64,000 bases of DNA from Escherichia phage vB_VIPECOOM03. A program made the position numbers and the translations under genes. Below are positions 59,201 to 62,982 of this stretch, in pieces. Numbering within the stretch: position 1 is the first letter of the stretch; each line of letters starts with the position of its first letter. The notes beneath the pieces were generated by a model. That model saw only the letters and a program-made list of their open reading frames with translations. It searched no databases and had not been told where the DNA came from. The stretch is from sequence record OQ721911; one strand, given 5' to 3'.

Positions 59201-62149
59201 ATGGCTACTTTAAAACAAATACAATTTAAAAGAAGCAAAACCGCAGGTCAACTTCCTGCTGCTTCAGTATTAGCCGAAGGTGAATTGGCTATTAATTTAA
59301 AAGATAAAGCAATTTTCACAAAAGATGATTCAGGCAATGTTATAGAATTAGGTTTAAAATATGGAGGAACAATTGATGGTTCTTTAACTGTTAATGGAAA
59401 TATAACTGGAACTTTAATTGGAAATTCTAGCACAGCTACTAAATTGCAAACACCTAGGAAAATTAATGGTATATCCTTTGATGGGTCAAAAGATATCACG
59501 CTAACTCCATCTGACATAAATGTCAATAGCACAACGTTTATAAAAAATAACGGCGAATTACCGGTTGATGCTAATTTAGATGAGTATGGGCCTGTTGAAG
59601 AATATCTTGGGGTTTGGTCGAAATCTACTTCAACAAATGCGCAACCGGCAAATAAATTCCCAGAAGAAAATGCCGTAGGTGTACTAGAAGTATTTGTGGC
59701 CGGTCAATTTGCTGGTACTCAGAGATATACTGTAAGATCTGGTAACGTATATGTTCGATCTTTGTCTGCTAAATGGAACGGTGTTAACGGTCCGTGGGGA
59801 GTTTGGCGTAATGTTCAAGCGTCAACTCGTCCACTTTCACAAACGATTGACCTTGATAGCTTGGGAGAATTAGAACATTGCGGCTTATGGCGAAATAGTT
59901 CAAGTGCTATTGCATCATTTGATCGCCATTATCCAGAAGAAGGATCAGCCGCACAAGGATTTTTAGAAATATTTGAAGGTGGTTTATACACGAGAACGCA
60001 GCGATATACTACCCGCATGGGTATGGTTTATACTCGTTGTCTCGCTGCCGCATGGGATGCTAGCGCACCCAAGTGGGAGGAATGGAAGCAGGTTGGTCAT
60101 GGCACACCAGCGACTTTTTATGATGGAGATCTGAATGATTTTAAAACTCCTGGGTTATATAATATTTTAGGCACTGATGCCGTTATTAATTGCCCTACAG
60201 GTGAAGGTTTACCAGCCGTTATTGTTGGTTTGCTAGAAGTTAAACAGCGTGCTTCTGGTGGTGCTATTTTCCAAAAATTTACTACTGCCGGAACGGGTGA
60301 AACTACTCGCGATCGTATTTTTGAGCGTGCATATACTGGTGGTGCGTGGGGTGCATGGAACGAAGTATATACATCTTATTCTCTGCCAATTACTTTGGGT
60401 ATGGGTGGTATTAAAGCTCAATTATCGGAGTTAGATTGGCAAACCTTTGATTTTGTTCCTGGTAGTATGTTTAGCGTTCCTTTGAACAAAATAAAGAATA
60501 TGCCAGCAAATATGGATTGGGGCACGATTGATGGAAACCTGGTTATGTTTTCCGTTGGTCCTAGCGAACATACTGGCACAGGACGTACTGTTCAGGTTTG
60601 GCGTGGTACTGTATCCCAGACAAACTACCGTTATTTTGTTGTGCGTATAGCTGGAAATCCAGGAAACAGGACTAACACTTGTCGCCGTGTTGTTCTTGAA
60701 GACGGATCACATACTTGGACTGCTCAACAAAACTTTAGGGGATTGCTAAATATCACCGCTGATATTAATCTTGGTGCTAATAAGAAAATTTCAATTGCTC
60801 CGGGAGCATATATTCAAGGCCCTGCTAGCGGTTCTGGTTCAAATACTTACGCAAATCAGAATACTACTATTGCGCCATTATATCAGGCCATTGACGATTC
60901 AAATAAAAACCAGTTTGCTCCTATTGTAAAACAGAAAAACACTGTAACAAATATTACTATGGCTTCTGGTATGGATATTGCTAGTTCAGAATATCGTATC
61001 ATTGCTCAAGGTGATTTATCCGCTACTGGAACTACAGCTAATGAATTAGCTACATGGCGTTTCTTGCCGTCTGGCCGATTCATGTCACAAAGTCGAGTTT
61101 ATGCTGGCGCAGCATTCTTGAACACTGATGGTAACATTGCTGGTTCAATCTGGAAGAAATACAACGATGCAACCAACTTAGACGCTGCTTTGAATACTCG
61201 CGTAGGTAAAAGCGGTGATATTATGACCGGACGCTTGACAATTCAAAGCCCAGGTGATTCTATTGTATTATCAGCACCTGCTAGTAATTCTTTGCATATT
61301 CGTGGTGACGTAGACGGGACTGGTAACTGGTATATTGGTAAGGGTGGTGATGATAATGGATTAGCGTTCTATAGTTATGCTACTAATGCTGGTGTATACA
61401 TTACAAACGCAGGAGATATCACGCTAAGTCCAAAAGGCGTCGAAATGGCTCATGTCAATAACATTCGATTATATGTTCATGGTGAACGTTGGACCGCTAG
61501 TCAACCAGGTGATTGGGGCAACCAATGGCGAGTAGAAGCGCCAATATTCGTCGATCATGGTTATGTTGGATCAGATAGCTATTATCCAATTATTAAAGGA
61601 AGAAGTGTAGTCACCAATCAAGGGTTTGTAACTGCCGTCGATCTTGGTATTCGTCGTGTCCCTAATAATTGGGGACAAGCAATTATTCGTGTTGGATCTG
61701 CGGAGGCATCGCCAGCGGCTGGACACCCTAACGCGGTATTTGAATTTCATTACGACGGTACTTTCTATTCTCCTGGTAATGGTAACTTTAACGATGTGTA
61801 TATTCGTTCCGATGGTCGACTTAAGATCAATAAAGAAGAGTTAGAAAACGGAGCACTTGAAAAAGTATGCCGACTGAAGGTTTATACATACGATAAGGTT
61901 AAGTCTATTAAAGATCGTAGTGTTATTAAACGTGAAGTTGGTATTATTGCTCAGGATCTTGAAAAAGAATTACCGGAAGCTGTGTCTAAAGTTGAAGTTG
62001 ATGGATCTGATGTTCTGACAATTTCTAACTCCGCTGTGAATGCTCTTTTAATTAAGGCTATCCAAGAAATGAGCGAAGAAATTAAAGAATTAAAAACGCC
62101 TTTCTTCACTAAAATTGCTCGCAAAATTAGTAATTATTTTAAATTCTAA
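59201..62149 (+). CDS. 37: Long tail fibre distal subunit gp37 with C-terminal intramolecular-chaperone-like domain
   Basis: 982-aa ORF; conserved N-terminus [20 protein letters not shown]; C-terminal ~110 aa ([20 protein letters not shown]...[15 protein letters not shown]...) resembles self-cleaving chaperone domains of tail spikes/fibres. Confidence 0.9.
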
Positions 62150-62154
62150 CAACA

Positions 62155-62170
62155 AGGGGCTTTGCCCCTT
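62155..62170 (+). terminator. Hairpin after gene 37 (GGGGC-tttg-CCCC)
   Basis: Short GC stem-loop followed by TTTGG; weak terminator or RNA processing site. Confidence 0.4.
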
Positions 62171-62181
62171 TGGAGAAAATT

Positions 62182-62982
62182 ATGGCAGTAGTTGGTGTTC
62201 CCGGTTGGATTGGAAGTTCATCTGTAAATGAAACAGGACAACGATGGATGAGTCAAGCGGCTGGTCAATTAAGATTGGGTGTTCCTTGCTGGATGAGCCA
62301 ATTCGCCGGACGCTCAAGAGAGATTATTCATACCGTAACAGCAAACCATAACTTTAATGGTCAATGGTTCCGCGACCGTTGCTTTGAAGCTGGCGGTGCA
62401 CCCATTGTATTCAATATTGTTGGTGATATCGTTTCTTATTCTAAAGATGTGCCACTTTTCTTTATGTATGGGGATACGCCTAATGAATATGTTGTTCTTA
62501 ATATTCATGGCGGTGTTCATATGTGGGGTCGTGGTGGTAATGGTGGATACACTCACTCAGGAGGCGACGGTAACGGTACACAAGGCGGTCATGTTATTCA
62601 AAATGATATCGGTGGACGGCTTCGTATTTGGAACTACGGTGTTATAGCTGCTGGCGGTGGTGGTGGTGGCGGTATTGCATATCGTCCACACTCAGGGGCA
62701 AACTGGCAAGATATCGGTGGCGGTGGCGGTCGACCTTTCGGTGGTGCTGGCGGTGGCGGTTATTCCGGTGGTGCTGCTTCGTATGAAGGTCCGGGTGGTG
62801 GTTATGACTATGGTAACGCACACTCCGGCGCAGGCGGTAATGCTGGTGCTGCTGGTCAGAATGCATGGTATGACGGCGGTAAAGTTCTTAAAGTTGGTGT
62901 TGGTGGTGCGTCTGGTCATGCAGTGTTTGGATCTTCTCCAACTTGGGGTGCTGTTGGAACAATTTACGGACCAAGAGTATAA
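62182..62982 (+). CDS. 38: Receptor-recognising adhesin gp38 (T2-type, glycine-rich motifs)
   Basis: ATG at 62182 with GGAG RBS gives 266 aa starting [13 protein letters not shown]; C-terminal half contains several poly-Gly blocks ([21 protein letters not shown]) separated by variable segments. Confidence 0.88.

Follow-up and report, generated by a model that had tools for sequence, protein, structure and literature searches.

The gp37-chaperone/gp38-adhesin design of T-even long-tail-fibre tips, the logic of their glycine-rich motifs (GRMs) and hypervariable segments (HVSs), and their structure have been published between 1986 and 2025. In Salmonella phage S16 (genus Gelderlandvirus; PDB 6F45; Dunne et al. 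2018), whose receptor is OmpC, the 749-aa gp37 autocleaves its last 113 residues, a C-terminal chaperone (PMC7917993), and the monomeric gp38 combines a Trp-bearing attachment domain with a polyglycine-II sandwich. T2 (MH751506), the namesake of the class, pairs a gp38 adhesin with a gp37 whose Peptidase_S74-type C terminus is removed by proteolysis, as found by Drexler (1986) according to its citation in PMC3157838. In T4, by contrast, gp37 lacks a Peptidase_S74 domain and is itself the receptor-binding protein, and the 183-aa gp38 is a non-structural chaperone. Chaperones of the same Pfam family also occur in endosialidases and T5 pb1 (PF13884, MEROPS S74), where a C-terminal domain of ~110 aa that begins with the motif S-D-x-R-x-K is freed after trimer folding of a tailspike or siphovirus fibre.

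Adhesins of the gp38 family are defined by five conserved GRMs parting four HVSs, and their specificity can be broadened or switched by a few changes in the HVSs (PMC3157838). Closely related gp38 proteins use the same receptor, which can be predicted from gp38 phylogeny (PMC12032242). Ox2 binds the loops of OmpA (PMC12032242), the adhesin of RB32 recognises both OmpA and LPS (PMC3157838), T6 uses Tsx, and PP01 gp38 binds OmpC of E. coli O157 (PDB 9V85; PMC12892980).

Here we describe genes 37 and 38 in a 64,000-nt stretch of the genome of Escherichia phage vB_VIPECOOM03 (OQ721911; hereafter, the window). We consider it very probable, on sequence grounds, that they encode the distal half-fibre of a T6/Ox2-type Tequatrovirus together with its tip adhesin, the two of which would assemble by cleavage followed by docking, with OmpA the likely receptor. 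The gene structure, family membership and conserved motifs set out below, together with near-identity to Ox2 in gp38 and the gp37 tip and to T6 in the gp37 shaft and chaperone, are direct observations, and the match statistics of the observed features all lie far beyond chance.

Genes 37 and 38 and their genomic setting

In Escherichia phages vB_VIPECOOM01 and vB_VIPECOOM02 (Tequatrovirus; OQ721909 and OQ721910), genes 37 and 38 match positions 59201-62982 of the window at 100% identity. The genes lie in the order rnh-34-35-36-37-38-t-asiA, an order shared with T4, and gene 38 occupies the place characteristic of the adhesin family, directly 3' of gene 37 and 5' of the holin gene t (Pfam Phage_holin_T, E=2.6e-117). 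The features of this part of the window are as follows.

58505-58512, + strand: TATAAATA, consensus of T4-type late promoters, 24 nt before gene 36 (motif scan)
58536-59192, + strand: gene 36, hinge or distal connector and attachment partner of gp37, 218 aa (Pfam Phage_T4_gp36, E=7e-30; annotation of OQ721909)
59201-62149, + strand: gene 37, long-tail-fibre distal subunit precursor, 982 aa plus stop (open reading frame; 100% identical to the OQ721909 'long tail fiber protein distal subunit')
62182-62982, + strand: gene 38, predicted monomeric receptor-binding adhesin, 266 aa plus stop (Pfam, PDB and Ox2 matches)

The late-promoter motif TATAAATA occurs 17 times in the window compared with 7.7 matches expected by chance, and in the tail-fibre area it has just two occurrences, one at 53311 ahead of gene 34 and one at 58505. 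Because no other lies between gene 35 and gene t, the latter is likely the promoter of genes 36-37-38. A sigma-70 scan of the region, which is uninformative for late genes, returned 14 sites versus 19.7 in shuffled sequence. A candidate hairpin between genes 37 and 38 (GGGGCTTTGCCCC, 62156-62168) was rejected, its folding being no better than that of shuffles (z=-1.35). Separately, an exact tandem duplication of 127 nt follows gene 35 in the window and is missing from the deposited sibling genomes.

The mechanically called reading frame of gene 38 begins at a TTG at 62170; the real start is the ATG at 62182, which is preceded at 7 nt by GGAG and agrees with the GenBank annotation. From this ATG, residues 1-42 align to positions 1-40 of the Gp38_N profile, and the gp38 proteins of Ox2, T2 and T6 all begin likewise with MAVVG or MAIVG.

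The gp38 adhesin and its predicted receptor

The assignment of gp38 to the adhesin class, proposed in a preliminary description of this DNA, is borne out by two Pfam families, PF05268 GP38 on residues 47-266 (223.7 bits against a cut-off of 25, E=3.2e-66) and PF21721 Gp38_N on residues 1-42 (70.2 bits against a cut-off of 25, E=1.4e-19), and by two solved adhesins, those of PP01 (9V85, E=3.9e-61, residues 38-266) and S16 (6F45_D, E=3.2e-43). The protein does not align with the T4-type chaperone class, the best BLASTP match to the unrelated T4 gp38 having E=9.3 over 21 aa. That description had also called the module T2-type; the class holds, whereas the subtype has to be amended to T6/Ox2, gp38 being 48% identical to T2 and 96% to Ox2. 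Sequence homology to 9V85 and 6F45_D leads us to infer a polyglycine-II sandwich fold for gp38.

The protein includes an N-terminal attachment domain and a C-terminal specificity domain. In the former, Trp residues 9, 22 and 37 are conserved without exception among the window, Ox2, T2, T6 and S16 proteins, and residues 1-45 match those of Ox2 and T6 at 100%. The role of the Trp 'prongs' of the attachment domain has been described (PMC7917993). Glycine makes up 26% of gp38 overall and 36% of residues 110-266, with runs at residues 158-164 (G7), 179-183 (G5), 190-193 and 205-207, and GC content rises to 0.48-0.52 at the glycine-rich part relative to a background of ~0.35. The boundaries below were set from a five-phage alignment and per-column conservation.

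62182-62316, + strand: attachment domain, gp38 residues 1-45, with Trp 9, 22 and 37 (Gp38_N match)
62527-62979, + strand: specificity domain, residues 116-266
62527-62544, + strand: GRM1, residues 116-121
62545-62583, + strand: HVS1, residues 122-134
62584-62652, + strand: conserved segment, residues 135-157
62653-62673, + strand: GRM2 (G7), residues 158-164
62674-62715, + strand: HVS2, residues 165-178
62716-62742, + strand: GRM3, GGGGGRPFG, residues 179-187
62743-62826, + strand: HVS3, residues 188-215
62827-62856, + strand: GRM4, residues 216-225
62857-62901, + strand: HVS4, residues 226-240
62902-62931, + strand: GRM5, residues 241-250
62932-62979, + strand: conserved C terminus, residues 251-266

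The five GRMs fall on invariant columns and the four HVSs are 0-30% identical between receptor classes, so that the family's five-GRM/four-HVS pattern is present in full. The poly-glycine blocks separated by variable segments that had been noticed earlier are thus located, and variability is concentrated between the glycine motifs.

Alignment with Ox2, T2, T6 and S16 places gp38 in the Ox2/OmpA class. The specificity domain is 97.4% identical to that of Ox2, compared with 49% for T6, 46% for T2 and 42% for S16, and the HVSs, which are 0-30% identical to those of T6, T2 and S16, match Ox2 at 100% (HVS1), 92.9% (HVS2), 96.4% (HVS3) and 93.3% (HVS4). The same HVS set is present in RB32 and SfPhi01. 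Because all four HVSs are of the Ox2/RB32 type, E. coli OmpA is most likely the receptor. Over its full length, gp38 (266 aa in both phages) is 96.2% identical to that of Ox2 (X05675; Henning laboratory, 1987-1991), with ten substitutions, six of them in residues 52-83 and four in the specificity domain. At five of the six sites in residues 52-83 the window has the T6 residue, while residue 53 is unlike both Ox2 and T6.

An adhesin of the same architecture might have a primary receptor other than OmpA, such as Tsx (as in T6), OmpC (PP01, S16), OmpF or FadL (T2), or might bind LPS in addition, and part of the evidence leans this way. Residues 1-115 match T6 at 114 of 115 positions; the closest solved structure is that of the OmpC binder PP01, a match that rests on the conserved GRM scaffold and not on the hypervariable loops, in which PP01 gp38 differs; and four specificity-domain substitutions separate the protein from Ox2, in a family in which a few HVS substitutions can change specificity and in which LPS is also a target of RB32, whose HVSs are of the same type (PMC3157838). 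We nevertheless regard a primary receptor other than OmpA as quite improbable, in view of the predictability of the receptor from gp38 phylogeny, the 93-100% identity of the four HVSs to Ox2 and their low identity to T6, T2 and S16, and the divergence of the whole specificity domain from T6. The four substitutions themselves, N174 (Ox2 K), G193 (Ox2 R), Y230 (Ox2 S) and A257 (Ox2 V), point the same way, as in three cases SfPhi01 and/or RB32, whose adhesins are likewise Ox2-type, have the residue seen in the window.

With OmpA as the most likely receptor, these substitutions could still modify its recognition. N174 lies in HVS2 and is the one residue not shared among these phages, Ox2, RB32 and SfPhi01 all having K at this position. 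There is a small chance that the substitutions, chiefly N174, shift the range of OmpA loop variants bound or confer use of a second receptor (LPS or OmpC), as has been reported for Ox2 host-range mutants, and they would then help the phage to grow on ATCC 25922, a clinical-type strain. A literature search, with the original J Mol Biol papers outside it, returned no relevant paper on Ox2 host-range positions onto which the four differences could be placed. The isolation host, ATCC 25922, is smooth and of clinical type, and therefore infection may need determinants beyond the gp38-OmpA interaction.

The gp37 precursor and its predicted cleavage

Along its length, gp37 resembles different relatives to different degrees. 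Its features are given below.

59201-59398, + strand: conserved N terminus common to T4, T2 and T6, gp37 residues 1-66 (sequence identity)
59573-60094, + strand: two tandem shaft domains of ~82 aa, residues 125-205 and 217-298 (segment BLASTP)
60731-61231, + strand: mosaic shaft module exchanged relative to T6, residues 511-677 (identity drop versus T6)
61409-61807, + strand: distal tip of the mature fibre, residues 737-869, ending in the DVYIR strand (61793-61807; Ox2 identity)
61805-61810, + strand: predicted autoproteolytic site R869-S870 (DVYIR-SDGRLKI motif)
61808-62146, + strand: intramolecular chaperone domain, residues 870-982, 113 aa (Pfam PF13884)

The N-terminal 66 residues, which probably join gp36, are 77% identical to T4 (residues 1-66), 73% to T2 and 95.5% to T6. 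The tandem shaft domains are 41% identical over 83 aa (E=1e-19), and a weaker third copy lies at approximately residues 341-390 (E=0.002); these repeats were detected by segment-against-segment BLASTP, whereas a self-BLAST of the whole protein missed them. Compared with the 994-aa gp37 of T6 (MH550421), the 982-aa protein is 73% identical overall (BLASTP), but this likeness is uneven, with 94.3% identity in residues 1-510, 20.4% in the exchanged module at 511-677, 83.9% in 678-869 and 96.5% in the chaperone. Many relatives cover gene 37 in two pieces only, at 87% coverage. Residues 453-667, which include the swapped module, are weakly homologous to residues 627-790 of T4 gp37 (E=1e-11) and to residues 579-809 of T2 gp37 (E=1e-13). 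The 1341-aa T2 protein is otherwise similar only in its N-terminal ~70 aa and in the chaperone (44%), and S16 is ~27% identical in the tip and chaperone region and 48% in gp38, besides differing in its shaft. The lengths given earlier for this protein and for T4 gp37 (1026 aa) are correct, but the comparison is uninformative because gp37 lengths in the class span 749 aa (S16) to 1341 aa (T2).

Over its final 251 aa, gp37 shares 96% identity with the Ox2 protein, for which the record covers the 3' end of the gene; the DVYIR-SDGRLKI site and the chaperone domain fall within this stretch. The C-terminal segment, recognised in the preliminary description as ~110 aa resembling self-cleaving chaperones, starts with SDGRLK at residue 870, is 113 aa long and matches Pfam PF13884 Peptidase_S74 ('Chaperone of endosialidase') at residues 870-928 (E=1.1e-11; 45.2 bits against a cut-off of 22). 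It also aligns to residues 86-191 of 6F45_A, the part of the S16 gp37 construct that holds the chaperone. At its start, S870-D871-G872-R873-L874-K875 forms the S-D-x-R-x-K motif, in which S870, D871, R873 and K875 are invariant in all five phages compared (window, Ox2, T2, T6 and S16). The role of the Ser/Lys dyad in this motif is known from endosialidase work.

In a published cleavage-site alignment (PMC7917993), a sequence identical to the DVYIR^SDGRLKI of gp37 is set against the experimentally defined S16 site DLNVS^SDRRIKK. By analogy, we predict cleavage between R869 and S870, after which residues 1-869 would form the mature fibre and residues 870-982 (113 aa) would be freed as the chaperone. 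The DVYIR strand is the predicted docking surface for gp38, a role taken from the S16 structure (PMC7917993). Whereas the endosialidase and T5 pb1 domains are carried on a tailspike or siphovirus fibre, the domain described here is on a T-even long-tail-fibre tip, and its predicted release would also create the docking site for a separate adhesin.

The domain might instead be uncleaved or degenerate and be kept in the mature fibre, as could be argued from a Pfam match that spans only residues 870-928 of the 113-aa segment. We judge retention highly improbable, given the intact and invariant SDxRxK motif, the identity of the domain to that of T6 (96.5%) and Ox2 (96%), the processing of the S16 and T2 homologues (PMC7917993; PMC3157838) and the need for an exposed tip in gp38 docking (PMC7917993).

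A scan of gp37 found no HxH motifs. Repeats of this metal-binding motif mark the receptor-binding needle tip of T4 gp37, and a tip of this type was rejected here, as gp37 resembles T4 only in residues 1-66 and, weakly, in the mid-shaft stretch. Sequence comparison of gp37 with the PDB returned S16 gp37 as the only match and no solved T4 gp37 tip. The T4-like reading, in which gp38 serves solely as a chaperone of assembly and receptor binding falls to gp37, and to which the label 'distal long tail fiber assembly catalyst' on some GenBank homologues (a name inherited from T4) might seem to lend weight, is effectively refuted and has a negligible probability in the face of the strong adhesin-family membership of gp38, its dissimilarity to T4 gp38, the features of gp37 just described, and an intramolecular chaperone in gp37 that makes a separate one unnecessary.

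Proposed assembly and its meaning

We propose the following course of assembly by homology with the systems above. Late transcription of genes 36-37-38 would start from the TATAAATA promoter at 58505, and the 982-aa gp37 precursors would trimerise from the C terminus, with their own Peptidase_S74 chaperone (870-982) as template. The Ser870/Lys875 motif would then cut R869-S870, freeing the 113-aa chaperone and exposing a flat tip of three DVYIR strands, on which one gp38 monomer may dock by its N-terminal domain (Trp 9, 22 and 37) and remain on the virion. The glycine-rich motifs of gp38 would pack as a polyglycine-II sandwich, presenting four HVS loops that bind the extracellular loops of an outer-membrane protein.

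Nothing at 59201-62982 is new: the region encodes a receptor-binding tip of the usual T-even coliphage kind, already well described. The exact sequence of genes 37 and 38 is already in GenBank, suitably annotated, and no outstanding question is opened or resolved by it. Its value is that of routine annotation, which supplies precise positions for the predicted cleavage site of gp37 and for engineering of the gp38 loops. As OmpA use is predicted for this therapeutic-candidate Tequatrovirus, loss of ompA or variation in its loops would be the expected route to resistance.

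Gene 38 mosaicism and receptor class

Across its full length, the tip adhesin gp38 is 96% identical to its counterpart in phage Ox2, 75% to that of T6, and 48% each to those of T2 and the Salmonella phage S16.

Gene 38 and its segments
Gene 38, from ATG 62182: gp38, 266 aa
62182-62526: gp38 residues 1-115; 114/115 identical to T6, 109/115 to Ox2
62527-62979: gp38 residues 116-266, the specificity domain; identity 97.4% to Ox2, 49% to T6, 46% to T2, and 42% to S16

Read from this alignment, gp38 is a mosaic in which T6-like residues 1-115 are joined to Ox2-like residues 116-266. 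Trojet et al. reportedly described specificity domains being swapped as complete units, with conserved flanks as the points of exchange, and the T6/Ox2 chimera of gene 38 fits this.

The four hypervariable segments of gp38 are 93-100% identical to those of Ox2 and 0-30% identical to those of T6, T2, and S16, and the same set occurs in phages RB32 and SfPhi01. In Ox2, binding is to the extracellular OmpA loops (PMC12032242); OmpA and LPS are the targets of the RB32 adhesin (PMC3157838), and receptors are predictable from gp38 phylogeny (PMC12032242). Because of this shared set and this literature, gp38, which the preliminary description had singled out for receptor assignment by alignment, falls in the Ox2/OmpA class. 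The protein departs from Ox2 gp38 at ten residues, four of them in the specificity domain: N174 (K in Ox2), G193 (R in Ox2), Y230 (S in Ox2), and A257 (V in Ox2); in a small comparison, N174 alone lacked a match in another Ox2-type adhesin. Specificity can shift with few changes in the hypervariable segments, which would allow for a receptor other than OmpA, but the loop identities argue against one and we consider it improbable.

Family-level matches comprised Pfam GP38 (E = 3.2e-66) and Gp38_N (E = 1.4e-19), as well as both solved adhesins, 9V85 (3.9e-61), which is the gp38 of the OmpC binder PP01, and 6F45_D (S16 gp38; 3.2e-43). The poly-glycine blocks described earlier are present as glycine runs of 7, 5, 4, and 3 residues, with 36% glycine in residues 110-266, a content that raises local GC to about 0.5, and the glycine-rich motifs fall on invariant columns of the alignment. 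The mechanical ORF begins at TTG 62170, but ATG 62182 is the true start: it has GGAG ahead of it and agrees with Gp38_N, the GenBank CDS, and the MAVVG/MAIVG N-termini of Ox2, T6, and T2. A GGGGC-TTT-GCCCC hairpin followed by TTT (62156-62168), located after the stop codon of gene 37 and ahead of the Shine-Dalgarno sequence of gene 38, had a folding energy indistinguishable from that of shuffled sequence (z = -1.35).

A mosaic shaft in gp37

The distal subunit of the long tail fibre, gp37, is shorter than T4 gp37 (1026 aa), as had been noted.

Gene 37 and its segments, with identity to T6 gp37 (994 aa)
59201-62149: gene 37; gp37, 982 aa
gp37 residues 1-510: 94.3%
60731-61231: gp37 residues 511-677; 20.4%
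gp37 residues 678-869: 83.9%
61808-62146: gp37 residues 870-982, chaperone; 96.5%

The low identity of residues 511-677 relative to their flanks, together with the many related phages that match gene 37 in two pieces only, points to module exchange by recombination inside the gene, and on these comparisons we interpret residues 511-677 as a swapped mosaic shaft module. Weak homology to the mid-shaft of T4 and T2 gp37 extends over a longer stretch in which these residues lie. Apart from that stretch, T4 gp37 has only residues 1-66 in common with gp37 (77% identity), while T2 gp37 resembles it in the N-terminal ~70 aa and the chaperone domain (44% identity). An Ox2 gp37 fragment, in contrast, is 96% identical to the last 251 aa. 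Given the gp37 comparisons with T6, Ox2, and T2, the original "T2-type" designation of 59201-62982 names the right class, within which the module is specifically of the T6/Ox2 type.

Residues 125-298 (59573-60094) form two tandem shaft domains of ~82 aa each (41% identity, E = 1e-19), with a weaker third copy at ~60221-60370 (E = 0.002). T6 gp37 also has these tandem domains, which no Pfam or PDB match spans. A search of gp37 for HxH motifs found none.

Locus, transcription signals and a 127-nt duplication

The gene order rnh, 34, 35, 36, 37, 38, t, asiA is the canonical T-even long-tail-fibre block. Positions 59201-62982 are 100% identical, in one piece, to Escherichia phages vB_VIPECOOM01 and vB_VIPECOOM02 (OQ721909/OQ721910), members of Tequatrovirus (species "Tequatrovirus vipecoom") recovered from Philippine hospital wastewater with E. 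coli ATCC 25922 as the isolation host. Those records label gene 37 "long tail fiber protein distal subunit" and gene 38 "tail fiber protein; host specificity". The 37/38 sequence is thus already deposited and sensibly annotated, and the architecture, processing, logic of glycine-rich motifs and hypervariable segments, structures, and receptor-prediction rules are already published.

Since TATAAATA at 58505, directly upstream of gene 36, is the only late-promoter consensus from gene 35 to t, genes 36, 37, and 38 are probably co-transcribed from it. On the plus strand, a strong terminator-like hairpin of 14 pairs with a T-rich tail after it (63712-63744) falls within the coding sequence of asiA, a minus-strand gene, just 3' of the holin gene t. 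It may terminate the late 36-37-38-t transcript.

At the end of gene 35, a 127-nt segment is present as two exact tandem copies (58253-58379 and 58380-58506). The duplicated unit comprises the final 31 gene 35 codons, the stop codon, and a terminator-like hairpin, GAGGGAGCCTTCGGGTTCCCTT-TTTCTTT, so that there are two hairpins (58350-58371 and 58477-58498) and a 50-aa ORF (58321-58473) echoing the gp35 C-terminus. The promoter starts in the last two bases of the duplication, and the complete TATAAATA therefore adjoins the second copy only. The duplication was absent from the otherwise identical OQ721909/OQ721910, whose record differs from the final 25 kb of the window by this one insertion, and from all 15 top-ranked relatives among the matches listed. 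For the sibling isolate vB_VIPECOOM03, the announced genome of 168,519 bp is longer than the 168,392 bp deposited for 01 and 02, and the excess is exactly 127 bp. The duplication reflects either a polymorphism peculiar to one isolate or a difference or artefact of assembly. Residues 58-120 of gp35, the proximal hinge connector (57402-57590), match Pfam PF15711, "ILEI, interleukin-like EMT inducer" (E = 3.3e-8; 34.4 bits, cut-off 27), an unexpected domain name in a phage fibre hinge protein.

Predicted maturation of the fibre tip

The SDGRLK segment of gp37, beginning at residue 870 and 113 aa long, was rightly described as chaperone-like: residues 870-928 match Pfam Peptidase_S74 ("Chaperone of endosialidase"; E = 1.1e-11; 45 bits, cut-off 22), and this stretch gives the sole PDB match of gp37, to the S16 gp37 construct 6F45_A. 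At S870, D871, R873, and K875, the window protein and those of Ox2, T2, T6, and S16 show no variation. S16 gp37 sheds its last 113 residues by autocleavage at DLNVS^SDRRIKK, a site aligned in the same study with DVYIR^SDGRLKI, the exact sequence in gp37 here (PMC7917993). T2 gp37 has been known to undergo processing since 1986, according to a passage in PMC3157838 that cites the work. An uncleaved C-terminal domain is very unlikely, as the cleavage motif is intact. A T4-like, chaperone-only gp38 is ruled out by sequence; gp38 has no similarity to the T4 chaperone (best E = 9.3).

Chaperone release bares the trimeric tip, where the gp38 N-terminal domain docks via conserved tryptophans (PMC7917993); W9, W22, and W37 are invariant in the aligned adhesins. 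In S16 gp38, the glycine motifs form a polyglycine-II sandwich (PMC12892980). From these homologues, we predict that mature gp37 would comprise residues 1-869, with residues 870-982 released as the chaperone, and that one gp38 monomer would cap each fibre tip, its glycine motifs folding into a polyglycine-II sandwich as in S16 and its hypervariable loops contacting OmpA.
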